A DNA stretch of 64,000 nt. Source: a bacterium (GTDB lineage: Bacteria; Hinthialibacterota; Hinthialibacteria; Hinthialibacterales; Hinthialibacteraceae). Where the stretch lies: the NCBI GenBank assembly GCA_963663405.2, contig CAXXSM010000148.1, forward strand, positions 1 to 64,000, in the 5' to 3' direction. The first letter of the stretch is position 1. Every line of letters begins with the position of its first letter. The position numbers and the translations under genes are program-made. This document shows, in pieces, positions 19,408 through 64,000 of this stretch. Under the pieces are notes generated by a model. That model saw only the letters and a list, made by a program, of their open reading frames with translations, was not told the origin of the DNA and made no database searches.

Positions 19408-20852
19408 TTACCAGATCCACTCCATCCCCTCTTTTTCGTACAGTTCTTTCAGTTTTTTATAGTAAGTTTCTGTCATTGATTGATTGTATCGATCGACAAT
19501 GCTGAGATCTTCCGGGATCTCTCCTTGATCGCCGGTTTCTTCAATCCAGTGTTGGAGCCGGTCCCGCATGAGCTGCAGCGTCCCCGCATAGTTGGGATCA
19601 ACGGCGAGGTTATGGACTTCGTGTGGATCGTTGGAGAGATCGTACAATTCTTCCATCGGCCGGGCGGGCGCCATGAAACGCGCCTGTTCGGGAGTGAGTT
19701 TCCCTTGTTTAAAAAGCCGGCGCATCAGCCGAAGGACAGGATACGACGTTTCCTTATATCGGTTCAGCTGAGTATAAGGCCGTTCGGGGTGGAAATTCCG
19801 GATGTATTTGAACCGTTTATCCCGCACGCAACGGATGCGGTCCACAGTTTCATCGCACCGGTCACGCGCCGCGATGATGTATTCCCGCGCCGCTTCGTTT
19901 GGGCCAACAAACCGTCCTTCCATTTTTGTTTTAGAAATATCAACACCCGCCAGAACTAGACTTGTCGCTGCGACATCGATCGAACTGATCATATCGTCTC
20001 TAACGGTTCCCGGTTCGATCTCTCCCGGCCATCGCGCAATGAGGGGAATATGAATGCCGCCGTCGTAGAGCCATTGCTTGCCTCGCACATGACACCCGCC
20101 CATGATCACCCCATAAAGATAACAATCGTATTATCCGCCAGCCCATCGTCTTCCAGTTTTTTAAGGACGGCGCCGACTTTTCGATCCAAATGGCCGATGG
20201 TATCTAGATACAACGCCCAGTCTTCGCGTGTAATGGGATGATCAGGATAGTAGGGAGGCAGAACAACATCCGCTGGATCGGTGGGATTCTCATCTAATTT
20301 CTTGAATTTCCTGTGCGCCTCAGGGAAATTGATCTCGGCGAAAAACGGCTGTGATGATTTCAATTGATCCCAATCATCTCCATCAAATGGCTTTTCAACC
20401 TTGAAATTAAAATCCGTCTTCCCGGCGCCTTTCAATGTATTGGTAATTCGTTTTATATTCGCGGTGAAATAGCCTACATCCCGGAAATAATCCGTGATTA
20501 AACGGACACCATCCGGCAGGCGGTAGCCATCCTGGCGATGGCTGCGATGGTTGTGCGCGCCGATGGAGGTTTGGTACATCCCCGTATGCAATGCCGAACG
20601 CGCGGCGGAACAGACCGGCGCTGTTGTAAACGCGTTGGTAAATCGGACACCTTCACTCGCAAGCCGGTCGATATTGGGTGTCTGCGCCAACGATTCTCCA
20701 TAACACCCCAGATCCGGGGAGAGATCTTCCGCCAGAATCCAAAGAATATTGGGCCGGTTCGCTTGCGCCATACTGCGTTGTGCTCCTACAGAAAGCAGAA
20801 ACGCAGGCAGAGCGCCTGTGGTGGTTAGGAATTGTCTCCGGGTTGATGTCAT
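19408..20852 (-). CDS. Tat-exported Cys-type sulfatase (frameshift near 20107)
   Basis: TRRQFL Tat motif, RPNILWILAED, CSAARSALHTG, C-terminal EELYDL..DPHE..NLA. Confidence 0.88.
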
Positions 20853-20915
20853 TGTCTGATCTCCAAATATAGCTGTATACAATCTGAACGAGCTGTGAGT
20901 ACTGCGCTTCATTTG

Positions 20916-21005
20916 TTTGAATCACGGAGGTCACGGAGGAGCGTGGATTGCGCGGAGAAAAATTCCGCGTGCACCGTGTGTTATCTGTGGAATCCGTGAT
21001 TCAAA
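20916..21005. repeat. Intergenic palindromic repeat element
   Basis: 13-bp inverted repeat TTTGAATCACGGA / TCCGTGATTCAAA with nested CACGGA/CCGTG units and an inner CGCGGA/TCCGCG stem. Confidence 0.65.
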
Positions 21006-21038
21006 ATTCAGTGTCCTTTATTCTTAATATTGACACTA

Positions 21039-21067
21039 TTCACGGGCGGGACGCCTGCGCTCCATTT
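21039..21067 (-). repeat. REP-like dispersed repeat, copy 1
   Basis: Reverse complement matches 55415-55443 at 28/29 nt (AAATGGA[G/A]CGCAGGCGTCCCGCCCGTGAA). Confidence 0.75.
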
Positions 21068-21257
21068 ACTGTAAGGCAAGATGGAAATTTTTATCTATAG
21101 TCATACATGTAAGGATGGATTAATAGTTAATTCGAGCAGTAAATAAATTCGAATAAGCGATTTACGGCGAAATGGAAAAGTCTAACGCTATTTGATAATT
21201 CTCCAAACTTAGAATAAAATGACGGTGGTTACAATCTAACTGATTTTATTTACTATA

Positions 21258-21386
21258 GAAGAAGACGAGAATTTCGATTTCGAGGAAGCTTTGCGTTCAA
21301 TCAATTTCGAATTGGGCGATCTCAACGCTAAAGCCGTGCAATTGGCTACGGTCAAATCGAAAAATGTTAATGAACTGGGATTATGA
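21258..21386 (+). pseudogene. 3' remnant of a type I restriction-modification M subunit (hsdM-like)
   Basis: EEDENFDFEEALRSINFELGDLNAKAVQLATVKSKNVNELGL* resembles HsdM C-termini; the stop overlaps ATGAGT as at hsdM/hsdS junctions. Confidence 0.55.
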
Positions 21387-21503
21387 GTGATTCTTCTTAT
21401 AAAGAACCGAATATGGAAATAATGTGAAAAACAGCGCATATTAGACTCGATGCAATAAAATAGATATTGTGGAGTTTTTGAATCATCAAAATGGGAGAAC
21501 AGC

Positions 21504-21746
21504 ATGAAAGCGATAGAAATGGAAACCGTTATCGATCCCGACGGTAAATTACCCGATGCGTTTCATGAAGTCTTTGGTAGAAAAGCCCGCGTGATTGTTC
21601 TTTACCAGGAAGAGAACTCCAATCCTCCTTCCGATAATGATTCCACCCAATTGATGGAACTTGCCGGGAAAATCAATTCATTTCGAGAGATAGAGGATCC
21701 TTTGTCGTTTCAACGAAAATTGCGAGATGAATGGATGCGAGAATAG
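21504..21746 (+). CDS. Putative antitoxin (VapB-like)
   Basis: 80 aa, overlaps the PIN gene, ends DPLSFQRKLRDEW. Confidence 0.7.
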   Translation: MKAIEMETVIDPDGKLPDAFHEVFGRKARVIVLYQEENSNPPSDNDSTQLMELAGKINSFREIEDPLSFQRKLRDEWMRE

Positions 21747-22123
21747 AATCCATGAATGACGAATTTTTTCTTATCGACACACATATCTTCATTCTATTAT
21801 TCAACAACAGATTGTCTGAACGTCTCCCTTATGGAAAATTTGGATGTTCCATTATCACAGAAATGGAATTGCGATCCTTTCCAAAACTGACCTTGGAAGA
21901 AGAAGCGTTTATGCGTGAAAAACTTTCCTGTCTTACGATTTATGGAATTGATGACGCTGTAAAGGAAAAAGCGATTCATCTGCGCCGCACTACCCGGCTT
22001 AAACTTCCGGACGCGATCATTGCGGCAACCGCTATTGTACATGCTGCTATCCTATTGACGAACGACAAGGAACTTCACGTCATTCCTGAGTTAAAATATC
22101 AAGAATTAGCCTTAAAATCGTAA
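21731..22123 (+). CDS. vapC: PIN-domain VapC toxin
   Basis: LIDTH, SIITEMEL, LKLPDAIIAATA, LLTND. Confidence 0.88.
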   Translation: MDARIESMNDEFFLIDTHIFILLFNNRLSERLPYGKFGCSIITEMELRSFPKLTLEEEAFMREKLSCLTIYGIDDAVKEKAIHLRRTTRLKLPDAIIAATAIVHAAILLTNDKELHVIPELKYQELALKS

Positions 22124-22414
22124 ATAAATGTTGAAACTGGAAAGATTATTCAAAGTTATTTATATCCGATCCCTTCCACAATTCCGGATTATCACTTGTA
22201 TCGATAATCCCTTACAACAGCATGTATCCAATGAAAATCGGTGATCAATAATAGACGTCCATCTGATTCCTTTCGATCGTCTGTTAAAGATTTGTATATA
22301 AGAGAGTCATTTGAAACGTTGTGGATGAATTCGATTCTTCCTCAACAGACCGCTAGCCCTTTATCTATCACCGTTTTTCCGCATGATAGTTCGAAAGAAA
22401 AAAGAGGAAACACA

Positions 22415-23902
22415 ATGCAAACTGGATTTCATTGGATTGATTACTTGGCGCTGGGACTCTATCTAACCGGCATGTTGGCGCTGGGATTTTATTTTACCCG
22501 CCGGGAACATACCACTTCCCGGTTTTTTCTAGGGGATCGAAAAATGCCCTGGTGGGCGGTTGGGATATCGATTTTCGCGACCAAACTGAGCGCGATTACA
22601 TATATCTCCATTCCCGGCCGCTCGTTTGAAACGGATTGGTCTTGGCTGGTTTATAATTTTAGGGATTCCCATCTCCGGTATGATCGTGATTTTCTTATTT
22701 CTTTCCCATCTTCCGGGAGAAGAAGATCACATCCGTGTATGAATACCTAGAACGCCGCTTTGGACCGGAGACACGGGCGTATGGAGCGCTCGCGTATATC
22801 CTCATGCAAATCGGCCGGATTGCGATAGTTTTATTCCTGCCTGCTCTAGCGCTCACCGAGGTGACTGGATTTTCCGTCGAATGGATGATTTTCGTCATGG
22901 GAATCCTAGTCACTGTATACACGGTTCTTGGGGGAATCGAAGCCGTGATCTGGTCGGATGTAATTCAGGCCGTTATTTTATTGCTTGGCGCCATTATCGC
23001 CTTATTGATTATCTGCTTCCGTGTCGATGGTGGTTTCGCTGGTGTCATCGATATCGGAAGCGAGCATCATAAATTCCAGATGATCCATCTCGATCCATCC
23101 GTGTCGGAGGATCTGATTTGGTTTTTACTGATTGGAGCGGTCTTCACCACTCTTGTGCCCTATGCGTCGGAACAAACCATTGTTCAACGGTATTTTACGA
23201 CGAAAAGCGACAAGGATGCGCGGCGAAGTATTTTCTTCAGTATTGGGTTTGGAGTATTCTCATCGTTTTTATTCTTTTTTTTAGGCACGGCGTTGTTCGC
23301 GTTTTATACGACACATCCTGGGCTTTTAGAAGAAGGTGTGGAGTGGGACCGGGTTTTCCCCTTCTTTATTGTTCAGGAAATGCCTCCTGGAATATCAGGT
23401 TTAGTCATCGCCGCCATTTTTTGCCGGAGCGATGTCCAGCCTGGATTCGAGTTTGAATTCAATCTCCACTGTTTGTGTAACCGATTTTTACAAACGTTTC
23501 ATGCGCCCGGATAGTGATGATAAGCGATGCCTGAACCTAGCGCGATGGATCACGATCATCATGGGAATCCTCGCAACATTCCTGGCGATTATGATCGCGC
23601 GCAGCCTGATTGGTAATCCCAATCAAAAAGGCGCATGGGATATGTTCGTCGCCGTACAGGGACTCTTGGGAGGCGGATTAGCAGGGATTTTCTGTGTTGG
23701 AATCTTAACCCACCGGACCAATCAAATCGGCGTAATGTCTGGTTTGGTGATCAGCACGGCGGTCTTGGCGGTTGTCAAATTCCAATTCAATTGGCACTCG
23801 CAAACCTTTGCCGCCATAGGTATTGTGACCGCGTTTCTCGTCTCCTATTTATTCAGCCTTGTCACCTCTCGCTCAGCCCCTTTAGTAGAAACTTCAAAAT
23901 AA
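22415..23902 (+). CDS. Sodium:solute symporter (two frameshifts)
   Basis: FFLGDRKMPWWAVGISIFATKLSAITY, YEYLERRFG, GGIEAVIWSDVIQ, MSSLDSSLNS across three ORFs; RBS AGAGGA. Confidence 0.88.
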
Positions 23903-24101
23903 ATCCGGAACGTCAAAATCTCTTTTAGCTGCCCTCCGATCTTTTACGAATAATATAATCGTACGAAAAGATCGCTTGAGTAGAACGGATTTGGCGTGTA
24001 TTATCATGAGAGTAATAACGAGAATACCATATAAACATCTGAATTATCAATTGTTGCTCTTCTTGCGCTTACTCGGCGGAAGAATCGCGCGAGATTATGT
24101 G

Positions 24102-25724
24102 ATGGAAGAATTCTATCGATTGCTCCAAGAACTTGCTCAAAGCGATCTCTCCGCCCCACCTAGCCCGTCTTGCCGTTCGTCCATTATTCAAATCCTTCAA
24201 ACACGGCTCCAAAACGAACCGTGGTTTCCCCAAAACGGGAGCGCTTGGATCCAGCGTTCAATCGAATCGGCGGCGGACAGCGGATTGAATCAACTCAAGC
24301 AACTGATCGAACGGGATTATGGTGAGAAGGAACTGAACCGGCGTCTGCGCGCGTTTGAATCGAATTTGACGGATAAATTCTTCTTCACGCCGGAAGCGGT
24401 TCATCTCATCTACGCCAGTAAACCGGAGGCGTTGGAAGCCTTTGTAAATGAAGGCGTAGACCGGCATTGCCGCTTTATCCGCCGCGCGGTTTCCAGCGTC
24501 ATTTACCGGAATCGGGCTGGTATCGGACGCCTTTCTCTTGACGGCGCTGAATTAGAGGATGAACTCTGGGGCAATGTGACGGAAGAAATCGTCCGCTGCC
24601 TTACGGATACATCGGCGCGCGTCTGGCGGACGCGGGAAGATTCCCCCCTCGAATTTCCACCCAAAACCATTCGCGGCCGCCGACAGGGAAGCGTTCTCCG
24701 CATCGCGCTGTCAATGAAAGGCCGAAAAATGGCGATGGCGCGGTCGGACTCAGCGCTGATGGTCTGGGATATAGAAAGCCTGGAACGGATTCATACATGG
24801 GATCTTCAACATCTGCGCTCCGGTAAAGAATCCGGAGAGGCTTTCCTTAATACGTCCCGTCTATTCTTTTCCGAAGATGGCTTAAAATTAGCGCTCGATA
24901 CCGGAAATGGGCTTATTGTGGTCTTTTCCCTCAACGATACCGAGAGCGGCATAAAAACATACACGGATAAAGAAAAAAAGAAATTTTTACGTGAATGTGG
25001 GAATCTATACATTCCTGATCCCTCGGAGAGTGACGCCAATCGATTTGATTTTCAATCCCGCCGGGGAGACCGGCTGCGTTTTGAGGAATACCGGGCAGCG
25101 GTGTACGATTGGTCCTGCGACGCGGATTGCCACATGGTTGCGACAGCGAGTGAATGCGAACGTTTGATGCCCCAATGGATGCGGGACGCTGGATTCGAGC
25201 GATCGGTTTTTCATATCGCGAAAAAACGTTTGATTGACCTGATCCGCAAACATACCCACACCGCCTATCATTGTTGGCGTTGTGGATCAGCGAGCGCCAA
25301 CTCTTCGGAGACGCGTTGCCGTGAATGTGACGCGGATTTCAGCCTTTGTCCATTGGGATGCAAATTGAAGAAACACGAAATCCTTAATGCGGCGAACCGC
25401 TGGCAATGCCCCCGCTGTGGAACGCAGTCGCGTCTGATGGAAACCGCAAAAGATATACACGAAGATTATCTCTTGACCGATCGCAGTCCCCAGCAGCGCT
25501 CTTGGGCGGAGCAGCACGATATGGAGCGGATTTTAAACGCGCTCTCCAGCGTGTCCGTCACCTACAAAAAACGCGAGATCGCCTGTGACCGGTTGGTTGA
25601 GTTCAAAACATCCGGCATGACGAATGAAGAGATCGGCGAGGAACTGGGCATCCCTAGAGGATCCGTCGATTACGTTTGGAATCAATGCAGAGAACAGGTC
25701 TTAAAGATATTCAAGGACCTATAA
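24102..25724 (+). CDS. Atypical sigma70/ECF-like factor with WD40-like insertion and double zinc ribbon
   Basis: Region-2-like AELEDELWGNVTEEIVR and FERSVFHIAKKRLIDLIRK; region-4 HTH GMTNEEIGEELGIPRGSV; four Cys pairs. ORF is open from 23976; probable start 24102. Confidence 0.6.
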   Translation: MEEFYRLLQELAQSDLSAPPSPSCRSSIIQILQTRLQNEPWFPQNGSAWIQRSIESAADSGLNQLKQLIERDYGEKELNRRLRAFESNLTDKFFFTPEAVHLIYASKPEALEAFVNEGVDRHCRFIRRAVSSVIYRNRAGIGRLSLDGAELEDELWGNVTEEIVRCLTDTSARVWRTREDSPLEFPPKTIRGRRQGSVLRIALSMKGRKMAMARSDSALMVWDIESLERIHTWDLQHLRSGKESGEAFLNTSRLFFSEDGLKLALDTGNGLIVVFSLNDTESGIKTYTDKEKKKFLRECGNLYIPDPSESDANRFDFQSRRGDRLRFEEYRAAVYDWSCDADCHMVATASECERLMPQWMRDAGFERSVFHIAKKRLIDLIRKHTHTAYHCWRCGSASANSSETRCRECDADFSLCPLGCKLKKHEILNAANRWQCPRCGTQSRLMETAKDIHEDYLLTDRSPQQRSWAEQHDMERILNALSSVSVTYKKREIACDRLVEFKTSGMTNEEIGEELGIPRGSVDYVWNQCREQVLKIFKDL

Positions 25725-25738
25725 AATAGGAAAGCGCA

Positions 25739-26875
25739 ATGAACGAACGGCGAAGAGAAACAAAACCAGCGCTGGCCAGTGACTCCGAGTGGGAGCGCGT
25801 CAATCAGGTGATCGCCTCCATACTCCAGGACCGCGATCCATCGTGGCTGGACGCGACGGAAAACATGCAGGAAACATCCGCCTCATTGAAACGGGATCGG
25901 GCGGCGTTTACCGGCGCCTTGCGTGACGCCCCTTTCCAGAAACGCCGGGATGACCGTCCCTCGCTTCTGGAGCGATGGATGCAGGAATCCCGCCGCCGCG
26001 ACTGGCTGGTCCGGATTCAGAGCCGCATGCGCGTCATGGAGAGCCGGTTTGGTGAAATGCGGGATCGTGTGGAAGGTTTCTTCGATCCCCTGATCACAGC
26101 GATTGAAGCGCTCTCGCAGCGAATGCAGCCCGCTCCCGTGATGCGGGACGCCGCCGCCGCAAGAGAACTGGTCTACCAGCCATGCCGCCGGGCGATCGAA
26201 CCGGTTGATCTACCGATTTTCAGCCCGCTTTTCTGCACGGCGATTGAAGCCGCGAACGGCGCGATTGAGATTTCGGGCTTAAAACCGGATACCGCGTATA
26301 AAATCTCTCTCTGGCCGGTCAAGGATTTAGACCGGGGTGGGGAAGAGACATTACACTCCTCCCCGCAAGGACAGGTCCGCATCGATATCGCCTCCTGGAT
26401 TCAGCGCCTGAAAGACCAGGATACCGCGCCGGTGGAGATGGTCTGGTTTCTAGCGGAAGAGCGTCCCGGCGCGCAGACCTCCAATGGATGGAGTTCCGGC
26501 CTGGTCTGGTTGGAGAGTAATTCAACGCTTCAACTCAGCCAGGAAATTCAATCGATACTATTTCAAGCGGCGCGGGAAGATATGGACGAATCGGATATCA
26601 ACACCCTCGTCGAGATCAATCTTCTCGCGGCGCGGGAACATTATATCAAAGCGTACGAACGCGCCCGCCGCGCGCTTCTGCATTCCTCAAAACAATCCAA
26701 ATACGAAAGCCGCGTGCCCTTCCGCGAATGCCTCTGGCAGTTGATTCACTATATTCTGGAGAACATCGAAAGAAGAATCGAAACCGCCGCCCCCGCCTTC
26801 CACCAAATTAAATCCAACTGGGACGCCCTTACCCCCCTGCAAAAACTTCAAGAACGAATCGCGGAGTGGGAGTGA
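25739..26875 (+). CDS. Hypothetical protein, possible anti-sigma/partner
   Basis: 378-aa ORF 14 nt after the sigma-like gene, with AGGA RBS and the same composition. Confidence 0.65.
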   Translation: MNERRRETKPALASDSEWERVNQVIASILQDRDPSWLDATENMQETSASLKRDRAAFTGALRDAPFQKRRDDRPSLLERWMQESRRRDWLVRIQSRMRVMESRFGEMRDRVEGFFDPLITAIEALSQRMQPAPVMRDAAAARELVYQPCRRAIEPVDLPIFSPLFCTAIEAANGAIEISGLKPDTAYKISLWPVKDLDRGGEETLHSSPQGQVRIDIASWIQRLKDQDTAPVEMVWFLAEERPGAQTSNGWSSGLVWLESNSTLQLSQEIQSILFQAAREDMDESDINTLVEINLLAAREHYIKAYERARRALLHSSKQSKYESRVPFRECLWQLIHYILENIERRIETAAPAFHQIKSNWDALTPLQKLQERIAEWE

Positions 26876-37946: not shown

Positions 37947-38043
37947 GTATATTTTTGAGATTCTCATAGATTCTTGAGACCATTCTGGCGCCTTTATTTA
38001 ATACAGAATTCCTTGTTTAATAGTGATTGACGCAAGATAAGTC

Positions 38044-38402
38044 ATGCTTGGGAGGGAATTCATGGTTTTAACAAGCGTTCTCAAATCTTCTCTTCTATCG
38101 ATCTGCTTCCTTGGTATTTCCATTCCCGCGTTTTCTCAAAATATTAATACACCAGAGAATTTTCCTGATCCAAACTTTCGGATGGTGGTTGAACGATTTA
38201 TGGGTATGAGAGAATTCACGGTGGAGGAAGCCGCTGCCAAAAGTGGGACAATGGATTATTTTAGTGCAACTTCTAGGGGAATTAGTATAGAGGACATGAC
38301 TGGAATCGAATATTTCACTTCTTTGACTGAACTCATCTGTGGGTGGGATTCAGTGAAAATTATGGATCTCTCTCACAATACTGCTTTGGGATTTTTTGTA
38401 TT
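38044..38402 (+). pseudogene. 5' part of a second LRR paralog, interrupted
   Basis: INTPENFPDPNFR cap as in the upstream gene. The LRR breaks at MDLSHNTALG. Confidence 0.8.
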
Positions 38403-39816
38403 AATAAAGCCTTAGAGATTAATCTGTAATCTGTTTTAGGATGGGGAAATTGGGTCCAGATACTAATCAATTTTGATAGTACTCATACGGATTTTTGGGG
38501 AAAATCTTTGATATCAAGTTGGATCTTATTGAAATATTTTCGCCAAGTACTTCGTAAATCAAAAATTAGTATTTTAAATACTAGGAAGGAACTACAAGGA
38601 TGAATCCAATAAATATAACCCTTAACGAAATTATAAGATTTGCTCTTTCAGGAGGAGTATTTTTAGTTTCAATTTTTATGATGCGACCGGATTTTTATTT
38701 ATTTAATTCTTTTTCGAATTATGGAGATAGCATTACTTTTTCATCTTTTTATCTCTTAATGGCTATCGTAATTGGAGGCTTTATTTATACCCTATATAGA
38801 GCAACATTGTTCCCCCTATTCTATTATTTGCTTAGGCTATGGATGCGTAAGAAAAATCTTCTTCCATCTTTTGATGAGGAAATAATTTGGATTCCCAATA
38901 CTAGAAGATGGACTCTCGTTAGCGAAGATGAATTGAAACGAGATTTTGTTAGATGGGAAATTAAAAAAAGAAAAGGAGGATTGCATGAAAATCTCAAATC
39001 ATGGGCCGCTATGGTTCATTTTTTATATTGTTCAGCTATTGCGATATCTCTCGCTTCTTATTTTTGCTGGCTTGATAGAGGAGGTAGATTTGATTTTTTA
39101 GTTATAGATTGGTGGTCAGGTAAAAAAGTAGTAGTAGCGATAGGAATTGTAGGAATATGGTTGGCGGCAGTTATTAATCACTGGAGGTATTTAATTTTTG
39201 ATGGGATTATAATGAAACATGATTATGAATTAACAAGTGATGTGATAACCACAGAACTTTCTCCTAGGAAAATGAGCATGAGTAGATTAGAAAATCTAAA
39301 AATTAAAACCATAAGTGATTGTGGACTTTATGAAATTGGACAGTTAGATATGATAAAAGATAATACTGATCGTTCAATATCTGTGAATATCAACAGATTT
39401 TCAACATCTCTAGATCGCCATTCAACTAAATGTAAAGATGGGATTCCAGGAGATGTCCACATTCTTGTCCTTGATCCAAAAGCCCGAGCAGGGAACCATT
39501 ATCATAAAAGAATCCAAGAATATTTCATTAATATAGGATATAAAGATTTAGTATTACACTTAAAAGATAGAAAAACTAAAGAGATTATACAAGTGATAAT
39601 TCCTCCAATTACTAGAGAGGAAATTATTGTGATTAGGCCAAAATGTGGTGTAACTCACTTAGTAGAAAATCCTAATGATATTTTATGCCCTCTACTTATC
39701 ATTATTGACAATGATTGTCCGGATGACACCATTATCGACAAAATATTAACTAATTAAGTAAATAGAATATCGTAGAGTCAATGGAGGATACAGAAATCCT
39801 CGAGAATTGTGTATAG
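38403..39816. mobile_element. AT-rich inserted segment carrying one cargo gene; no transposase
   Basis: Separates the two halves of the LRR paralog. GTATT direct repeat at 38398-38402 and 39817-39821. Confidence 0.6.
38600..39757 (+). CDS. Membrane protein (about 4 TM) fused to a C-terminal cupin (WxcM/FdtA-like)
   Basis: AGGAAGGA RBS, hydrophobic N-terminal half, RAGNHYHKRIQEYF ... GVTHLVEN cupin motifs. Confidence 0.65.
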   Translation: MNPINITLNEIIRFALSGGVFLVSIFMMRPDFYLFNSFSNYGDSITFSSFYLLMAIVIGGFIYTLYRATLFPLFYYLLRLWMRKKNLLPSFDEEIIWIPNTRRWTLVSEDELKRDFVRWEIKKRKGGLHENLKSWAAMVHFLYCSAIAISLASYFCWLDRGGRFDFLVIDWWSGKKVVVAIGIVGIWLAAVINHWRYLIFDGIIMKHDYELTSDVITTELSPRKMSMSRLENLKIKTISDCGLYEIGQLDMIKDNTDRSISVNINRFSTSLDRHSTKCKDGIPGDVHILVLDPKARAGNHYHKRIQEYFINIGYKDLVLHLKDRKTKEIIQVIIPPITREEIIVIRPKCGVTHLVENPNDILCPLLIIIDNDCPDDTIIDKILTN

Positions 39817-40039
39817 GTATTGTTTGAATAATAACTTAACCAGTCTATCGAGTTTTGTCGCTAACGAAGGTCTTGGATTGGGAGATAATGTGGATGTTCG
39901 TATCAATTTTATTGGTTGTGTTGATACAGACAACTCGTTGAATGATATCCAAATTCTAATAGAGAGAATCGGGGATGGTTTTAAATACAAATCGCAGAAA
40001 TGTGAAAAACTACCAGTCATGAATTGGATATTATTTTGA
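39817..40039 (+). pseudogene. 3' part of the interrupted LRR paralog
   Basis: YCLNNNLTSL...DVRINFIGC...NDIQILIERIG matches the C-terminus of 37074-37946. Ends VMNWILF. Confidence 0.8.
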
Positions 40040-57194: not shown

Positions 57195-58237
57195 GTTTTG
57201 ATAAAATCATCATCAATTTTCTCAGTAAATGTAAAAAACATCTGATCAGCACATTTAATAATCCGGTAAAAAGCATCTTTTGTCACCTGATCAAGTTCTC
57301 CGGTTACATCATCAACCAGAACCACTATTTTGCTTTTCTCTCCCCTGCCCTCCTCCAGTTTACTGATCAAATTGATTTTTCCCAATTTTAAACATAATGC
57401 CAATAGACGGCACTGTCCAGTTGAACCGAAATGACGCAGCAGTTTACCACTGTAAAGAAAATCAAAATCATCAACCTGTGGCCCAAAACTGGTATAACCT
57501 TTTAATTTATCTTTTTCACGGTCCCGCTTTAAACGATTCTGAAATAATTCGTTATTATTTGTTCCACTGTGAAAACGATAATCAATGTCAAATTTAACCG
57601 AATCCGCTTTGATCGAATTGATTAAGCCGTTAATTTCATTTTTAAGCGCTTCACAGGCTTTTTTACGGTAATCCACAATCGTACATCCCTTTTCCGCTAT
57701 CATCGCTTCATAGACATCCATAAGCGTTAAATCGGGATTATTAGAACGCAACATGACATTACGGGTTTTCAAAACGGTAAGATAATCGCTTAAAATCGTC
57801 AGATATTCCGGATGCAATGTAGATATCAACATATCAAAATAGCGTCTTCTCAATCCGGAACTGCCACTTACAATCAGGATATCATCAGGCGAAAAAGCGA
57901 CTGCTTTAAATTTCTGAATAAATTCACTGGCCTTCGAAACCGGTGCCCCATCCATCCTTAATTTGCGCTTATCCAGATATTCAACTTCCAATAGCTGTTC
58001 CCAAGCCTGTCCGATATTAACCTGTGATTTTATGTAAAATCCTTTTCCACCGATTTTTTTTAAATCTTTCAGTTGTGACGTCCGGAATGAACGAAGCATG
58101 CTGATAAAAAAAATGGCTTCAAGTAAGTTTGTTTTCCCCTCACCATTTTGACCGATAAACACATTAACAGTCGATTTAAATGTAAGATTCAACTCGGAAT
58201 AGTTGCGAAAATCGCGAAGAGAGAGAGACGAAATCAT
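57176..58237 (-). CDS. recF: DNA replication/repair protein RecF (last codons probably chimeric)
   Basis: FRNY, GQNGEGKTNLLEAI, RRRYFD, GPQVDD, GSTGQCR, LVDDVTGELD. Confidence 0.95.
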   Translation of the reverse strand: MISSLSLRDFRNYSELNLTFKSTVNVFIGQNGEGKTNLLEAIFFISMLRSFRTSQLKDLKKIGGKGFYIKSQVNIGQAWEQLLEVEYLDKRKLRMDGAPVSKASEFIQKFKAVAFSPDDILIVSGSSGLRRRYFDMLISTLHPEYLTILSDYLTVLKTRNVMLRSNNPDLTLMDVYEAMIAEKGCTIVDYRKKACEALKNEINGLINSIKADSVKFDIDYRFHSGTNNNELFQNRLKRDREKDKLKGYTSFGPQVDDFDFLYSGKLLRHFGSTGQCRLLALCLKLGKINLISKLEEGRGEKSKIVVLVDDVTGELDQVTKDAFYRIIKCADQMFFTFTEKIDDDFIKTCRNQK

Positions 58238-58288
58238 AGATGATCCTTTTCAGCAAATAATTGATTGGATCAAAGGTTTAACAAACAA

Positions 58289-58317
58289 TCAGATTGAAGA
58301 AACAGTCTTCAATCTGA
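58289..58317 (-). terminator. Intrinsic terminator-like hairpin after dnaN
   Basis: 12-bp perfect stem TCAGATTGAAGA/TCTTCAATCTGA, followed by TTGTTTGTT on the minus strand. Confidence 0.6.
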
Positions 58318-58339
58318 ACTTAAAATCGACGCTGAAAAA

Positions 58340-59434
58340 TTACTTATTTCTCATCGGCATAATGACATAAAGGAAGCCATCGCCACCTTCAATACCGACA
58401 GGACTGAAGCCGTCATTCAACTTCAATGATACATTATCACTGCTGACATGTCTGAATGGATCAGCCAGGAATGCCGGATTAAAGGAAATATTAATTTCTG
58501 TATCATTGTAATCAATTTCAATAACGTCTTTTGCTTCACCGACTTCTGAACTTGCAGCATCAAATTGCAACATATTATTACCAATATTCAATTTGATAAA
58601 TGAACCGCTGTCAGCAATAGAGATGGCAACCAGATCCAGTCTGGATAAGAAATCCTGAGCTGAAATGCTGATTGATTTGCTGAACGAAGCCGGTATAACC
58701 TGGCGGTAATTGGGATAGTTTCCTTCAATCAACTTTGAAGTTAAAATGGATTTTCCGGTATCAAAAAGAATCTGATTTTCACCAATTTCTATTGAGACTT
58801 CTCCACCTTTTCCTACCAACCGTTTCAACTCAGTAGCACTCTTAATTGGCAGAATGGAATCACCGTCTTCTCCGGTAAAATTGTCAAGAATTTTTTCAAC
58901 CAATGCCAAGCGTTTACCATCAGTAGCCACAGCTGTGAACGTGTTTTCTTTGATTGACAGCAGAATTCCATGTAGAACCTTACGGGAATCATCAAGACTG
59001 ACCGCATAGGAAATTTGATCCAGAATACGCGATAATTCTTCTTCCGGCAATTTGAACTGTTTGATCGGAGTAAATTGGATTGGAAGCGGAAAATCTTCCT
59101 CAGATAAGCCGTAAATCAAGCCGGAGTAACTGCCACATTTTATTTCTGTATGATGATTTTCATTGGTATCCATGGAGACTTCTTTACCAATAAACTTACC
59201 AACAAACATCTGTAATTTTTTAGCCGGTAAAGTTGTTTTTCCTTCACGTTCAACAGTCGCTTCAATTTTGGTAGTAATACGTATTTCCAGATCAGTAGTA
59301 GTTAAGGTAAGGCAGTTTTCTTCAGCCTCCATCAACACATTTGCCAGTACAGGCAATGTTGTTCGTGATCCGATTACACTTGTCAGTTTTTGTAATGCTT
59401 CCTGAAGGCTGTTTTTGGCTACCGTTAATTTCAT
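58340..59434 (-). CDS. dnaN: DNA polymerase III beta sliding clamp
   Basis: TLPVLANVL, TTDLEI, VATDGKRLA, SKLIEGNYPNYRQVIP, YVIMPMR; GGAG RBS. Confidence 0.97.
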   Translation of the reverse strand: MKLTVAKNSLQEALQKLTSVIGSRTTLPVLANVLMEAEENCLTLTTTDLEIRITTKIEATVEREGKTTLPAKKLQMFVGKFIGKEVSMDTNENHHTEIKCGSYSGLIYGLSEEDFPLPIQFTPIKQFKLPEEELSRILDQISYAVSLDDSRKVLHGILLSIKENTFTAVATDGKRLALVEKILDNFTGEDGDSILPIKSATELKRLVGKGGEVSIEIGENQILFDTGKSILTSKLIEGNYPNYRQVIPASFSKSISISAQDFLSRLDLVAISIADSGSFIKLNIGNNMLQFDAASSEVGEAKDVIEIDYNDTEINISFNPAFLADPFRHVSSDNVSLKLNDGFSPVGIEGGDGFLYVIMPMRNK

Positions 59435-59446
59435 CTTATACTCCAA

Positions 59447-59690
59447 TTTTTCGACTTATTTACAGATGTTAATATTAGTAATTTATATTATATATATTAA
59501 AATAAAACTATTGTTATTATTATAAGCTGTTAATTTGTTAATAAATTTAATTTCAAGTAGGAAAAACTCAAATTTTAATTATTAATAACCCTGTTTTTTT
59601 TTGTTTAAAACCTATACTCGTCTGTGAATTAATGTTATTAACATAATTATTTAATGAAAAATTAACAATTTTATTAACAACCCAGACAAG
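59447..59690. other. Candidate replication origin (oriC)
   Basis: Very AT-rich gap upstream of dnaN with repeated TTATTAACA-type 9-mers (59536-44 rc, 59635-43, 59671-79, plus near matches). Confidence 0.5.
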
Positions 59691-59699
59691 GAGACAAGA

Positions 59700-60335
59700 A
59701 TGTCATATGATATATCAGACTTATTCAACCGTTATCCGGAATTACAATTACAACAGGATAATATACTGAAAGCTTGTTCAATTTTCAAAGAAACATTCAA
59801 AAATGATGGTACTCTTTTTGTTTGCGGTAATGGAGGGAGTGCCAGTGATGCTGAACATATTGCCGGTGAACTTTTAAAAGGATTTCTTAAATTAAGACCA
59901 ATTGATAAAGAGCTGCGCAATAAACTGGAAACTGATTATCAGGAACAAGGTAAATTTATTGCCGATGGACTGCAAAATGGTCTGAAAACAATTTCATTAA
60001 TTGGACATCCTTCACTTTCAACAGCGTTTGCCAATGATGTGAATGCATCATTGATTTTTGCTCAACAACTTCATGTGTTGGGAAAAAAAGGTGATGCCTT
60101 GTTAGCTTTATCAACATCCGGAAATTCTGATAATGTGATTAAATGTATGCAATTAGCTAATGTTAAAGGAATTAAAACAGTAGCTATGACCGGAAGTGGG
60201 GGAGGGAAGTGTAAAGAACTTGCTGAATGCTGCATTCAGGCACCATCGAAAGAAACATACATTGTTCAGGAATATCATCTTCCTGTTTATCATGCAATCT
60301 GTGCTGTATTAGAGGATGAATTTTATGGTGAATAA
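59700..60335 (+). CDS. gmhA: D-sedoheptulose-7-phosphate isomerase (SIS domain)
   Basis: CGNGGSASDAEHIAGEL, TAFAND, STSGNS, QEYH. Confidence 0.88.
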   Translation: MSYDISDLFNRYPELQLQQDNILKACSIFKETFKNDGTLFVCGNGGSASDAEHIAGELLKGFLKLRPIDKELRNKLETDYQEQGKFIADGLQNGLKTISLIGHPSLSTAFANDVNASLIFAQQLHVLGKKGDALLALSTSGNSDNVIKCMQLANVKGIKTVAMTGSGGGKCKELAECCIQAPSKETYIVQEYHLPVYHAICAVLEDEFYGE

Positions 60336-61041
60336 AAAAGAAAAAATAAAGCATGTTGCAATTATTATGGATGGCAATGGACGCTGGGCAAAGCAACGTG
60401 GCTTTGAACGAATTGAAGGTCATCGCGCTGGCGCTGAAGCAGTTAAACGGACCATTCAGGCAGCTCAGGATTTTGGTATTGAATACCTTACCTTATATGC
60501 GTTCAGTACTGAAAACTGGAAGCGGGAAAAATCTGAAGTTATGGGTTTAATGTCTTTATTACGTGAATTTATTGATAAAAATATTGAGGAAGTTAATGAG
60601 AAAGGAATCCGCCTGAAAGCAATTGGCCGTTTGAATCAACTTCCTTTTCCTACCAGAAAAAAATTATTTAAAGCAATTGAACAGACAAAAAACAATACAA
60701 AAGGCAATCTTGTTCTGGCATTAAGTTATGGTGGCAGAGCAGAACTTATCGATGCAGTTAAAAAAATATCTGAAGAGGTAAAATCAGGGAGCATCAAAAT
60801 TAAAAATATTGATGAAGAACTGATTTCAAATTATCTTTACGATCCAACTATTCCCGATCCTGATCTCATGATTAGAACCAGTAGCGAATTTCGCATCAGT
60901 AACTTTCTGCTCTGGCAATTGTCCTATTCTGAAATCTACATTTCTGATCTGCTCTGGCCGGACTTTGATAAACATGAATTCCAAAAAGCTTTGGATAGTT
61001 ACTACAATCGTGAAAGACGTTTCGGAGGCCGTTTGAAATAG
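60316..61041 (+). CDS. uppS: Undecaprenyl diphosphate synthase
   Basis: HVAIIMDGNGRWA, YAFSTENWKR, YGGR.E, DLMIRTS.E.RISNFLLWQ. Confidence 0.96.
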   Translation: MNFMVNKKEKIKHVAIIMDGNGRWAKQRGFERIEGHRAGAEAVKRTIQAAQDFGIEYLTLYAFSTENWKREKSEVMGLMSLLREFIDKNIEEVNEKGIRLKAIGRLNQLPFPTRKKLFKAIEQTKNNTKGNLVLALSYGGRAELIDAVKKISEEVKSGSIKIKNIDEELISNYLYDPTIPDPDLMIRTSSEFRISNFLLWQLSYSEIYISDLLWPDFDKHEFQKALDSYYNRERRFGGRLK

Positions 61042-61166
61042 TCGTCATTTCCAGTCGTCACTTTGTCGTTATATAGAAAAATAGCCTCAAAATTACTTTC
61101 ACTTATTGAAAATAACTTGATAACAGGTATCTTTACAAAACATTCAAAATTAATTAAAAGGCAGCA

Positions 61167-62759
61167 ATGAAATTCTTTAACACAGCAGGACCTGTAAATA
61201 AAAGTATTCATTATAAAATAGATCCATTAAAGCGTTTGGATACAGAAGAAATTCTGATGTTAATTGAACAACAGAAGTATTTTATTCTCCATGCTCCCCG
61301 TCAAACAGGAAAGACATCGTGCTTATTGGCTCTACGTGATTATCTGAATAAAGGAAGCGATTATTATTGTGTATATGCAAATTTTGAAGCTGGACAGGCA
61401 GCTAGAAATGATATACATGATGGTATAAGCTCAATTTTATCTGAACTGCATGCTCGTATTTCTGATACACTTAATATAAAAATTCCTTTTACAGTAAATG
61501 AAATAATAGAATCAAACAGTGCAAATAATGCATTAAACGCATATCTTAATAATATCTGTAAATTGCTGGATAAACCTTTTATTCTGTTTATAGATGAAAT
61601 TGATGCTTTGGTTGGTGATACATTGATATCAGTACTACGTCAATTACGTTCCGGATATGATACTCGACCGACTCTTTTTCCACAATCTGTCATTCTTTGC
61701 GGAGTTCGCGATATAAAAGATTACCGTATTCATCGAAGTGATGATGATATTATTACAGGTGGTAGTTGTTTTAATATTAAATCTGAATCATTATCTCTTG
61801 GTAATTTTTCTGAACAGGACGTTAGAACATTATATGCGGAACATACAAAAGAGACTGGACAACAGTTTGATGACGCCTGTTTTCCATTAATTATGCAGTA
61901 TACAGGTGGACAACCCTGGTTGGTTAATGCGCTGGGATATGAAGTTACATTTAAAATGAAAGAAAACCGTGATCGTTCTGTTGTAATTACAGCTGATATG
62001 CTCAACCAGGCAAAAGAAAACTTGATTTTATCCAGGGCAACTCACCTTGATCAACTTGCCGATAAACTTAAAGAAGATCGGGTTCGTCATGTTATTGAAC
62101 CCATGTTGACTGGTGATGACAGCGATGCCAGCTTTGACGACAATGAATATTGCGTTGATCTCGGTCTTATTAAAAAGAGTGATCGTGGATATATCATTTC
62201 CAACGATATTTATAAAGAAGTTATGCCGCGAGAATTAACCACAATGATTCAAAATGGTTTTATGGCTAAGTTTCAGCCGGAATGGATCAATCCTGATGCT
62301 ACATTGAATGTTCATAAACTAATGACAATGTTTCAGCAATTCTGGCGTGAAAACAGTGATATATGGTCTGCGAAAATAGCAGGATATAATGAAGCTGCAC
62401 CCCATCTTGTTTTTCAAGGATTTTTGCAATGGGTCAGTAATGGTCAGGGCTTGATTGAAAGAGAATATGGCCTTGGTAGAAGCAGAGCAGATCTCTATTT
62501 ACGCTGGAAATATACTAAAGGTGAACAGCGTATTGTCTTTGAACTGAAAATGCGCACTGAAAGAGATAATTCCTCCAAAAAATTTGAAAAAATAAAAAAT
62601 GACGGCCTTAGACAAATCTCTCAATACGCTGATCTCTGTGGTGCCGATGAAGCCCATCTGATTATTTTTGATCGTCGACCCTCAATTGACTGGAAAAATA
62701 AACTATATATTGACAATACAAAACAAAATAAACTCAATATCAGCATCTGGGGAATGTGA
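61167..62759 (+). CDS. AAA-like ATPase with C-terminal PD-(D/E)XK nuclease-like domain
   Basis: FFNTAGP, HAPRQTGKTS, FIDEID, TGGQPWLVN, EREY..G..RADL...VFELK. Confidence 0.85.
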   Translation: MKFFNTAGPVNKSIHYKIDPLKRLDTEEILMLIEQQKYFILHAPRQTGKTSCLLALRDYLNKGSDYYCVYANFEAGQAARNDIHDGISSILSELHARISDTLNIKIPFTVNEIIESNSANNALNAYLNNICKLLDKPFILFIDEIDALVGDTLISVLRQLRSGYDTRPTLFPQSVILCGVRDIKDYRIHRSDDDIITGGSCFNIKSESLSLGNFSEQDVRTLYAEHTKETGQQFDDACFPLIMQYTGGQPWLVNALGYEVTFKMKENRDRSVVITADMLNQAKENLILSRATHLDQLADKLKEDRVRHVIEPMLTGDDSDASFDDNEYCVDLGLIKKSDRGYIISNDIYKEVMPRELTTMIQNGFMAKFQPEWINPDATLNVHKLMTMFQQFWRENSDIWSAKIAGYNEAAPHLVFQGFLQWVSNGQGLIEREYGLGRSRADLYLRWKYTKGEQRIVFELKMRTERDNSSKKFEKIKNDGLRQISQYADLCGADEAHLIIFDRRPSIDWKNKLYIDNTKQNKLNISIWGM

Positions 62760-62821
62760 GTTTTCATATAGTTGTATTTGTATCTATCTATTTTTTGATA
62801 AACTTATTAAGAAGAACGATA

Positions 62822-63319
62822 ATGAAAACTTATAAATTTACCCTTGTTGAAGTTATTATAATTTTACTGATTCTTGTTATTTTAGCAGCAATGTTATTAC
62901 CTGCTCTTAATTCAAAACGGGAAGTAACCAGAAATATTTCCTGTGCAGGTAATCTAAGATCAATGGGTTTGTCTTTTAAACAATATGCATTGGACTTTAA
63001 TAATCAATTTCCGAGTGGGATGAATGATGCTGGTTTAGATAAACTAAGGGAAAATGATTATTTGACTGACTTTAAAATTTATGCATGTCCTTCAACTTCA
63101 GATACAGGAACAATTGATGGCATTAGTGTGAAATCAAGTTATCAATATATCGGCAATATGTCAGAAGAAAATACTCAACCTGACAGCGGATTAATGGCTG
63201 ATTATTCCGGCAATCACAGTGATTACGGTAATATTCTCTTCTGTGATGGCCATGTTACAGGTTATGCAGGTTCTTCCTGGCTGTCCAATGCTGGTAATAA
63301 AGGTTTTGTTAACTATTAA
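62822..63319 (+). CDS. Prepilin-type protein with H-X9-DG motif
   Basis: FTLVE...ILAAMLLPAL, C..NL..MG, CPS, HSDYGNILFCDGH. Confidence 0.88.
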   Translation: MKTYKFTLVEVIIILLILVILAAMLLPALNSKREVTRNISCAGNLRSMGLSFKQYALDFNNQFPSGMNDAGLDKLRENDYLTDFKIYACPSTSDTGTIDGISVKSSYQYIGNMSEENTQPDSGLMADYSGNHSDYGNILFCDGHVTGYAGSSWLSNAGNKGFVNY

Positions 63320-63334
63320 AGAATAAAAAATTTT

Positions 63335-64000
63335 CACAGATATCCCATAGAATTCTATTAAAATAGAAAAAAGCAGATTTCAGTATACCTTAATTGCAAC
63401 CAAACAAAAAAAGGAAATGCCATGAAACCTGCCAAGCATCAATTTAGTGTACTAAAACAAATTTGCAATCATATTCCACCCTATCTTGTTTCAAAGCTGG
63501 CCAAGAAAAATGGAGTAACCCAAAAAAGTCGCAGCTTCAGTCCCTGGAGTCATATCGTGAGCCTTGTTTATGCTCAATTATCGCATGCATTAAGTTTGAA
63601 TGATGTTTGTGATTCCCTTAGGAACCATTCAGGCGCTTTGGCGTCAGTCCGGGGAGCAACAGCTCCAAGCCGCAATGGTTTGTCTAATGCCAATAAAATC
63701 CGTAATCCCAAAATGGCTGAAGAACTGTTCTGGGAAGTAATGAAACAAATAACGCATGATCATCCTGACTTTATTCACAGCCGAAAATATAGTAAAATGC
63801 CACGTAGGTTCAAACGGACAATCAATGCAATAGATTCATCTACTATTCAATTAATTGCCAAATGTCTCAATTGGGCAAAGCACCGTCGAAGAAAAGCTGC
63901 GGCCAAAATGCATATGCGACTTGATCTGCAATCATTTTTACCTCGTTTTGCCATAATAAAAAGCGGCAACACCCATGATTCAACAGAAGCATATGAGTTG
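63335..64000 (+). mobile_element. IS4-family insertion sequence (left part)
   Basis: Putative left end CACAGATATCCCATAG at 63335 followed by a transposase ORF; runs off the window, so the right end cannot be checked. Confidence 0.65.
63422..64000 (+). CDS. IS4-family transposase (DUF4372 + DDE), partial; not in the ORF track
   Basis: AAGGA RBS; MKPAKHQFSVLKQIC...FSPWSH...AQL...SLNDVC...SRNGLSNAN..R...IDSSTI.L...WAKHRRRKAAAKMHMRLD...HD. Confidence 0.9.
   Translation, partial: MKPAKHQFSVLKQICNHIPPYLVSKLAKKNGVTQKSRSFSPWSHIVSLVYAQLSHALSLNDVCDSLRNHSGALASVRGATAPSRNGLSNANKIRNPKMAEELFWEVMKQITHDHPDFIHSRKYSKMPRRFKRTINAIDSSTIQLIAKCLNWAKHRRRKAAAKMHMRLDLQSFLPRFAIIKSGNTHDSTEAYEL

Follow-up and report, generated by a model that had tools for sequence, protein, structure and literature searches.

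Organization of the Locus

A gene pair was analyzed in a stretch of 64,000 nucleotides (the window; positions 1 to 64,000 of the forward strand of contig CAXXSM010000148.1, assembly GCA_963663405.2) from a bacterium of the family Hinthialibacteraceae. The first gene codes for a protein related to sigma factors of RNA polymerase, whose domain 2 (sigma2) is very likely split by a WD40-type beta insert, and the second for a protein predicted to bind that split domain. The sigma-like gene (24006..25724, + strand) extends from ATG 24006, residue 11 of the listed open reading frame (ORF), to the stop codon, with an alternative ATG at 24102 (residue 43). The partner gene (25739..26875, + strand) starts 15 nt past this stop and encodes 378 amino acids (aa) of no known family. 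All evidence presented here is prediction from small alignments of uncultured genomes.

The sigma-like gene was singled out by an earlier note, made from the letters of the window and a list of its ORFs. The 582-codon open frame was confirmed at 23976-25724 (+), and residue numbers throughout are those of this listed ORF (TTG 23976 as residue 1). Every motif quoted in the earlier note was found at the residue number given there: EALEAFVNEGVDRHCRFIRRAV starts at residue 150, AELEDELWGNVTEEIVR occupies residues 191-207, DTSARVW residues 211-217, MVATASE residues 387-393, FERSVFHIAKKRLIDLIRK residues 407-425 and GMTNEEIGEELGIPRGSV residues 547-564, while the cysteine motifs CWRC, CREC, CPLGC and CPRC are found at 433-436, 448-451, 458-462 and 478-481, respectively. 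Seventeen homologues at 35-45% identity and one 93%-identical fragment all keep the listed motifs and layout, and the gene and its features are therefore real, beyond what chance would produce.

A Probable Sigma Domain 2 Built from Two Separated Segments

The AlphaFold2 model of the sigma-like protein (mean predicted local distance difference test (pLDDT) score 76; 17-row alignment) has helices over residues 43-209, beta strands over 214-390 and a long helix at 407-426, followed by a low-confidence stretch (428-509) and a terminal helical bundle (510-581). In line with the earlier note, residues 133-210 and 395-427 come together in this model, folded without any partner, as one sigma domain-2-like bundle with the beta insert between them. 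The first half, proposed to hold regions 2.1-2.2, is encoded at 24372..24605 (+) and was delimited by fold search. The second half (25158..25256, +) comprises an RxMPxWMxxAGF segment and a helix similar to regions 2.3/2.4.

The model was searched with VIA-align against 48,161 representative chains of the PDB. Among the best 50 rows listed, six are sigma chains, and these are the sole non-propeller rows of that set. They cover the model from residue 132 or 133 to residues 426-430, one extending to 516, whereas the other 44 rows cover residues 210-397 only. The sigma rows are pro-sigmaK (8vjl_B; Z 9.1, root-mean-square deviation (rmsd) 2.7 Å, 94 aligned residues of 116), SigA domain 2 (4x8k_A; Z 9.0, rmsd 2.8 Å, 99 of 122), RpoS region 1.2+2 (5h6x_B; Z 7.8, rmsd 3.1 Å, 88 of 96), 7vpd_F (Z 8.4), 7ye1_F (Z 7.8) and 9m84_F (Z 7.8, rmsd 9.5). 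Because the segment 133-210 has just 78 residues, alignments of 88-99 residues have to use the helix past the insert. It follows from these alignment lengths that the sigma2-like bundle, a fold recognized here on a predicted model, is built from two pieces about 185 residues apart.

Sequence comparisons point in the same direction for the second half. Profiles were aligned with hhalign to 31 sigma factors of the size of extracytoplasmic function (ECF) sigmas from the genome of origin, using 30 column shuffles as control. The 2.3/2.4 helix alone gave a value of 18.4 versus a shuffled maximum of 10.7, and a profile from which the insert was deleted gave 19.3 versus 16.4, with a single register running over regions 2.2 and 2.3/2.4. 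In this register LEDELWGxVMEE falls on region 2.2 and AGFERxVxHIAKKRLIDLIRK on regions 2.3/2.4. The assignment of residues ~405-425 to regions 2.3-2.4 is thus borne out, both by the hhalign values above those of the shuffles and by the ECF model TIGR02937, which matches 14 of 14 family members. Within residues 133-212 conservation peaks on the putative region 2.2 helix, where E196, L197, G199, E203 and E204 are invariant.

In the hhalign register the insert falls on the loop that joins region 2.2 to region 2.3, at its N-terminal edge. This loop is the specificity loop, which reads the flipped -10 base in both primary and ECF sigma factors (PMC6411747). The invariant RxMPxWMxxAGF segment found after the insert may still serve as the specificity loop.

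The WD40-Type Insert

The insert (24606..25157, +; residues 211-394) is a WD40-type beta module of about three blades, its strands extending over residues 214-390 according to DSSP. Its relationship to WD40 proteins is clear at the sequence level: phmmer retrieves multi-repeat WD40 proteins that match residues ~204-330 with E values down to 6e-18, the family profile matches WD40 chains of the PDB (E 1.3e-16 to 2ymu_A), and WD40-type Pfam families are found in 17/17 members at E<=1. Only WD40 chains occur among the 60 matches listed for the whole-family profile against PDB sequences, and Foldseek with the whole model against the PDB likewise returned WD40 propellers only. The sole strong repeat lies at residues 236-268 (907 domain hits of at least 8 bits in 130 WD40 proteins, 0 with the reversed sequence); other segments, including both half-repeat ends, score 5.7-7.8 bits versus 0.1-3.5 bits on reversed sequences. 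In the VIA-align search residues 210-397 match WD40 propellers (Z 10.2 at most); among compact matches the three-blade fragment 6r5z_A ranks best (Z 8.4, 102 of 119 residues aligned).

The DSSP strands group into about three blades, at 240-276, at 295-330, and at 379-390 together with 214-227. A closed propeller has at least four, usually seven, blades in one chain. The WD40-type module of ~185 aa that had been described between the sigma2 halves is therefore present, as a module of about three blades in the model and not as the full propeller. A three-blade WD40 unit cannot close alone, which leaves three options: an open module, pairing with a further copy, or completion by a partner.

It had also been noticed that the insert starts and ends with the two halves of one WD40 repeat in swapped order. 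The 'DxSARVW' strand at the start aligns to the WD40 'DKTVKLW' strand in the PDB profile, and 'DGxxxATASE' at the end aligns, weakly (6.4 bits versus 0.1 reversed), to the strand that precedes it. Both ends are strands in the model. Since they align, if weakly, to neighbouring WD40 strands, the two ends plausibly form one blade. Swapped halves would be the natural outcome of a module inserted through the turn between blade strands B and C.

Region 4 and Relationship to ECF Sigma Factors

The protein ends with a sigma region-4-like helix-turn-helix (25503..25724, + strand, stop codon included; residues 510-582) modeled with pLDDT 85-90. TIGR02937 (sigma70-ECF) aligns residues 405-577 to profile positions 50-163 of 165 (E 3.4e-8) and matches 14/14 diverse members at E<=0.01, in agreement with the terminal region-4 helix-turn-helix of the earlier note. 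The Pfam r4, r4_2 and ECF families give weak matches to this protein (E ~0.03). At E<=1, Sigma70_r4_2 is found in 9/17 members and Sigma70_r4 in 8/17. Alignment of region 4 to the ECF sigmas of the same genome by hhalign yields an E value of 5e-6. A profile of residues 395-582 against the PDB retrieves 16 weak matches of zinc-finger type, the best with E 0.059.

The sigma-like protein very probably belongs to the sigma70 family and is ECF-like, with sigma2 and sigma4 domains and without sigma3. An architecture in which sigma2 of such a protein is split by a WD40-type insert is, in our judgement, well supported by structure prediction combined with partial sequence homology. Binding of the protein to the RNA polymerase core would be expected from this assignment.

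The genome of origin (8.44 Mb, 82% complete) has 40 Sigma70_r2 matches, a large sigma complement.

The Cysteine-Rich Linker

The linker between sigma2 and sigma4 (25257..25502, +; residues 428-509) carries eight cysteines in four pairs followed by an acidic stretch and is modeled with low pLDDT. C433, C436, C448, C451, C458, C462, C478 and C481 are invariant in the first 17 sequences. The Pfam family Zn_ribbon_3 is found in 13/17 members at E<=1, and a rubrerythrin-like domain matches with E 8.7e-5. With cysteine knuckle pairs conserved in 17/17 sequences the zinc ribbon is recognizable at the level of the motif, metal binding being putative, and the linker is predicted from these motifs to carry two zinc ribbons.

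Of 14 representatives of the wider family, six are devoid of the cysteine module and a seventh is short of three cysteines; in all of these the insert, region 4 and the two halves of sigma2 are retained. The insert is thus universal in the family and the zinc linker is not; missing in 6/14 representatives, the linker is an optional, clade-specific addition. The eight cysteines had been placed correctly by the earlier note, and their role as a core part of the mechanism does not hold (absent in six representatives, degenerate in one). Redox or metal sensing by the zinc linker is speculation.

The Partner Gene and the Predicted Complex

A homologue of the partner gene was found by tblastn directly downstream of the sigma-like gene in 15 of 16 loci; the sixteenth locus ends 242 nt after the gene. 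A conserved partner in 15/15 loci with room for it, predicted to bind the sigma2/WD40 surface, speaks against the one-component sigma factor envisaged earlier. The partner has no match to Pfam or NCBIfam at E<=10, anti-sigma families included, and no usable match was obtained in a search of the ESM Atlas. Its fold search gave no clear match (best Z 8.0, generic helical repeats): residues 161-260 are FN3-like (Z 6.3-6.4), residues 263-378 form TPR-like helices, and residues 1-150 are barely covered by the rows. Folded alone, residues 1-88 reach pLDDT 41-67.

In complex predictions of the two proteins the median ipSAE was 0.63 (0.67, 0.62 and 0.63 in the three runs), compared with 0.00 for the best of three controls; in calibration the ipSAE mark was reached by 58/80 solved complexes and by 2/110 mismatched pairs. 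At least 66% of contacts are shared between the runs, in which the partner has a pLDDT of 70 or more. These predictions support, rather than show, that the partner binds the sigma-like protein. Only residues 12-84 of the partner take part in the predicted interface; on the sigma side it includes residues 146-206 (helices 2.1/2.2), 239-379 (insert) and 394-429 (2.3/2.4 helix). On helix 2.2 a single face provides the predicted contacts (198-199, 202-203 and 206). The near-invariant F57 of the partner packs, in the predicted complex, against sigma residues 161-168 and 202, and its conserved 'SLxExW' motif (75-81) against blade residues 295-346. Invariant residues of the segment 43-430 are found in the interface in 11 of 45 cases with ~8 expected, a hand count that was not used as evidence.

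In the hhalign register W198 and T202 correspond to residues that we take to be N409 and M413 of E. coli sigma70, with a role in core binding. The contacted face of helix 2.2 (198, 202, 206) is presumably the one that sigma70 turns to the clamp helices of beta'. Because the partner covers this clamp-binding face in the model, an anti-sigma-like, inhibitory reading is favoured, and the partner would act in the inhibitory direction.

The motif RRRAIEPADLPxFxPLFCTA of the partner (149-168) is strongly conserved and lies outside the predicted interface.

Homologues and Distribution

Searching 1.84 billion representative sequences of all lengths with phmmer identified 18 family members at E<=1e-30, and all 18 carry the insert wherever their sequence covers it. 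The search for homologues with and without the insert suggested by the earlier note thus retrieved only insert-bearing ones. Insert-less or fused relatives were not found, the search for shorter forms giving two 100-aa fragments only. The homologues are labelled 'hypothetical protein' in their sources with the exception of one 'ribosomal protein L40E', a label presumably due to the zinc ribbon.

The sigma-like gene and the partner gene are single-copy in the genome of origin. In a sample of 35 species genomes of the phylum, all of 4-8 Mb, both genes were found in that genome and in 19/19 others of its family (20/20), and in 0/15 genomes from five other families. Single-copy and universal, the gene pair marks one clade of family rank that consists of uncultured bacteria with large genomes, and its presence in 20/20 genomes suggests a core regulatory role in this clade.

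Two related loci carry interrupted copies: at L025:3050-4724 the sigma-like gene, and at L013:7758-8871 the partner gene, is recovered by tblastn as two pieces in different frames. Both cases look like assembly frameshifts.

The Conserved Upstream Element and the Start Codon

A conserved DNA element of 42 nt (23970..24011, +) is found at the beginning of the sigma-like gene. It comprises TTGAGT (23976-23981), a 17-nt spacer, TATTAT (23999-24004) and the ATG at 24006, and abuts or overlaps the first candidate ATG/GTG start codon. Its pattern, TTGAGN-17-TATNAT, consists of hexamers of sigma70 type around a spacer that is palindromic in part (CGGnT..GCCG). The window and seven related loci carry the element at a constant distance, and it is conserved across genera. 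An eighth locus (L018), in which the element is 1 nt shorter, was excluded from the position weight matrix (PWM), and three more loci have looser sigma70-like versions. In the 8.4-Mb genome of origin the PWM scores 52.1 at the element and at most -1.9 at the 399 other core-pattern candidates. The element being unique in its own genome, no regulon could be derived from the genome-wide PWM scan. In the ~95 nt after the element no consensus base pairs were predicted (9 sequences) and no Rfam match was found at E<=1. Three readings are considered: a housekeeping-type promoter with an operator in its spacer, an autoregulated promoter of the sigma-like protein giving a leaderless transcript, or a translational element.

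The listed TTG (23976) sits within the conserved element and is probably not the start codon, for which ATG 24006 and ATG 24102 are the likely candidates. In favour of the former, the 93%-identical homologue begins at residue 11 and the 32 codons from 24006 to 24101 are stop-free in 8/9 loci (stops in frames 0, 1 and 2: 1, 21 and 9). In favour of the latter, 7/17 homologue gene calls begin at the equivalent of residue 43 and two subgroups have no extension. A first reading of the element as a sigma70-type promoter followed by a 5′ leader, with translation starting at residue 43, was disfavoured; the 32 codons are stop-free and preserved in length, which argues against a simple leader. Residues 11-42 are a basic and hydrophobic extension whose 32-codon length is kept in 8/9 element-bearing loci and which is absent from other subgroups. 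Such an extension might form a genuine short amphipathic helix at the N-terminus.

The N-terminal helical region that follows (24102..24371, +; residues 43-132) has AlphaFold2 helices at 64-79, 90-112 and 117-137 (pLDDT 71-88). No Pfam or NCBIfam family matches residues 43-132, and they lie outside the fold-search rows. An hhalign match of this region to sigma region 2 (P 0.003) was treated as helical noise and rejected. As to expression, the stretch is listed in no RNA run.

Genes Flanking the Pair

Upstream of the pair, a sodium:solute symporter (Pfam SSF) is found at 22241-23902 (+) over three overlapping ORFs in different frames. Contigs of related strains (runs X2 and X3) lack single bases at 22291, 22657, 22702 and 23417; contigs from four runs cover only parts of the locus. 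Given these single-base differences, the breaks may be indel errors of the assembly or a strain-specific pseudogene. A sulfatase at 19408-20912 (-) is likewise divided into two adjacent ORFs, with the N-terminal part at 20106-20912 and the C-terminal part with SGSH_C at 19408-20109, a frame break of the same kind as that of the symporter. A PIN-domain ORF is encoded at 21731-22123 (+; E 7.5e-12) in surroundings that related loci do not share, and the interval from 20912 to 21731 contains no ORF of 120 aa or more. The G+C content is 0.335-0.364 at 38001-40000 and 58001-64000 versus 0.44-0.52 elsewhere in the window, and these low-G+C stretches may be foreign or AT-rich islands.

Comparison with Known Systems

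No sigma factor with a folded domain inside sigma2 was found described in the literature, in agreement with the earlier note, which knew of no such group; the supplementary tables of ECF groups could hold a related one. The main text of the 2021 ECF re-classification mentions neither 'insertion' nor 'WD40'. Its retrieval relied on a generic sigma2-linker-sigma4 hidden Markov model (HMM) with a score threshold, and the sigma-like protein would probably fail that threshold. The kind of system, an ECF-like factor with a cognate partner, is known; as far as checked, the insertion site, the three-blade module, the zinc-ribbon linker and the partner family are undescribed.

One of the two nearest known systems, next to sigma-HetZ/PatU3, is ECF57 of Planctomycetota and other bacteria, for which PMC8999054 reports C-terminal WD40-like repeats and conserved cysteine pairs proposed to link sigma2 and sigma4. 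Both combine an ECF-type sigma and WD40 repeats in one polypeptide. In ECF57, however, the repeats follow an intact sigma2-sigma4 core, whereas here about three blades lie inside sigma2 (211-394) and the protein ends with region 4. The C-terminal WD40 on an intact core that defines ECF57 is thus not found, and Pfam Sigma70_r2 is undetectable in the sigma-like protein. The nearest cluster in a protein-language-model search has WD40, Sigma70_r2 and Sigma70_r4 (904 aa), with a weak score of 0.75.

It had been stated that regulatory extensions of ECF factors are normally terminal. A published exception, of a different kind, is sigma-HetZ of heterocyst-forming cyanobacteria. According to PMC13342950, its cryo-electron microscopy (cryo-EM) structure reveals an ECF-type sigma with the domain order i1-sigma2-i2-sigma3.2-sigma4-i3. 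Its three extra domains are responsible for recognition and unwinding of the -10 region, and the soluble inhibitor PatU3 binds to them. The locus described here shares with it an ECF-type sigma with extra folded domains and a soluble cognate partner, the latter predicted. In the published description the extra domains of sigma-HetZ flank sigma2 and are not of the WD40 type, and no zinc ribbons are mentioned, which sets the two apart.

CorE-like ECF238 factors have a CxC in the linker and a C-terminal cysteine-rich tail, and their linker cysteines aid metal-dependent activity, as PMC8999054 and PMC7826278 describe. Cysteines in the sigma2-sigma4 linker are common to both, but here they form CxxC, CxxC, CxxxC and CxxC within 433-481 with no C-terminal extension, and the module of ~50 residues, unlike that of ECF238, lies wholly in the linker and is missing in a subclade. 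The partner recalls class I anti-sigma factors in being encoded downstream and in placing short N-terminal helices, in the prediction, on the sigma2 core-binding surface. It differs from them by the lack of an anti-sigma family match, of a predicted sigma4 contact and of an evident transmembrane segment, and from ordinary sigma/anti-sigma pairs by a predicted interface that includes a WD40 module absent from ordinary sigmas. The resemblance of the partner to an anti-sigma domain is one of predicted binding alone.

Proposed Mechanism and Alternatives

We propose that the locus is a two-gene operon in which a split-sigma2 factor would be inhibited by a soluble partner of 378 aa. The N-terminus of the partner, disordered alone, would fold onto a composite surface formed by helices 2.1/2.2, helix 2.3/2.4 and the WD40 module. 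The bound partner would mask the face of helix 2.2 used for the beta' clamp helices, giving an anti-sigma-like switch, and would lock the region beside the -10 reading loop. The C-terminal domains of the partner, a beta-sandwich and a helical repeat, would perceive a signal and thereby bring about release of the sigma-like protein; in the clade bearing the cysteines, the zinc linker might sense the signal too. The nature of the signal and the regulon are conjectured here. To this full mechanistic reading we assign a probability of about 0.6.

Several results weigh against it. The sigma2 family PF04542 gave 40 matches in a six-frame search of the genome of origin and none in this ORF; no Pfam sigma match was found for the segment 133-212 in any of 14 members at E<=10, its profile has no match among PDB sequences at the same threshold, and hhalign of the first sigma2 half to the sigmas of the same genome gave 12.7, with a shuffled maximum of 15.4. 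The assignment of residues ~150-208 to regions 2.1-2.2, made in the earlier note, therefore stands on the fold of a predicted model and finds no counterpart in sequence comparisons (Pfam, PDB profile, hhalign). Even at the fold level, Z below ~13 can reflect a common helical-bundle arrangement, as VIA-align itself notes. The TIGR02937 score of 33.3 bits (P0001, the sole member with a score shown) is below the curated cut-off of 42.9, and the profile of 395-582 retrieves no sigma chain among PDB sequences at E<=10. The linker normally threads the RNA polymerase cleft (PMC6411747), and a double zinc ribbon folded there is hard to square with canonical ECF geometry. The structure and complex models are not independent, both being derived from the same small alignments (17 and 15 rows). 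Binding to RNA polymerase, binding to DNA and expression of the sigma-like protein are themselves putative, and a predicted interface cannot tell inhibition from activation. The fold result was weighed by its specificity, no other helical protein being present among the listed rows, and by its agreement with the sequence evidence.

Instead of inhibiting, the partner might be an obligatory co-factor that completes or stabilizes the composite of sigma2 and WD40 insert, closure of the three-blade sheet being one way, and that remains part of the holoenzyme, either as second sigma subunit or as co-activator. The strict 1:1 co-occurrence and adjacency of both genes and the one upstream element apparently common to them agree with this proposal, but strict pairing is just as typical of sigma/anti-sigma pairs. 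A three-blade unit unable to close alone, with the partner contacting the blades at 291-346 in the prediction, and the invariance of many contacted residues (Y146, H164, G199, E203, A306, F337, W379, R409, K416, I420, R424) would also be explained. The footprint, however, lies on helices 2.1/2.2 and 2.3/2.4 as placed by the hhalign register, which would be needed free for beta' and DNA, and we consider a co-factor role unlikely.

Alternatively, the WD40 insert might primarily be a module contacting DNA or RNA polymerase that redefines promoter recognition, rather than a regulatory docking site. Its position at the specificity loop that reads the -10 element (hhalign register; loop function as given in PMC6411747) and its presence in all family members, contrary to the zinc linker, would fit such a role, for which sigma-HetZ offers a precedent: its non-sigma2 insertion domains recognize and unwind the -10 region and are the binding site of the inhibitor PatU3 (PMC13342950). 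DNA contact by the insert is purely putative, though, and the RxMPxWMxxAGF segment after it may still act as the specificity loop. WD40 modules are typically protein-binding, and we regard this alternative as distinctly improbable. About as doubtful, in our view, is a protein that has lost RNA polymerase binding altogether, a helix-turn-helix regulator or scaffold keeping a relic sigma-like fold. The sub-threshold family scores, the lack of a sequence signal in regions 2.1-2.2, which are the beta'-binding part, the bulky folded modules at two sites that are tightly packed in holoenzymes and the weak matches of GerE/LuxR-type and other helix-turn-helix families to some members would all be expected of a relic. 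Less easily reconciled with it are the order and spacing from 2.3/2.4 to 4, which fit the ECF model in 14/14 members, the specific retrieval of sigma domain 2 by the fold search, and the conservation within 133-212, strongest on the putative region 2.2 helix. We thus retain the partner-inhibited split-sigma2 factor as the preferred reading.

Implications for Sigma Factor Biology

No part of sigma70-family proteins is more conserved or more tightly packed than sigma2, which binds the clamp helices of beta' and whose specificity loop is responsible for reading and melting the -10 element. The locus may, tentatively and at somewhat less than even odds, exemplify a new class of sigma regulation in which an interaction module is grafted in the -10 specificity loop, a soluble partner gates core binding and -10 reading at one site, the three-blade unit is completed by the partner or by a second sigma copy, and a double zinc ribbon replaces sigma3 in the linker. 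Proteins of this type, with a sigma2 domain invisible to HMMs, also escape sigma censuses made with Sigma70_r2 or generic ECF models. If the factor is active, the geometry of its holoenzyme must differ from that of every solved sigma70-family complex, and the protein would show how much structural load sigma2 tolerates. It would also be a natural case of regulation right at the -10 reading head, exerted by a partner family of no known fold.

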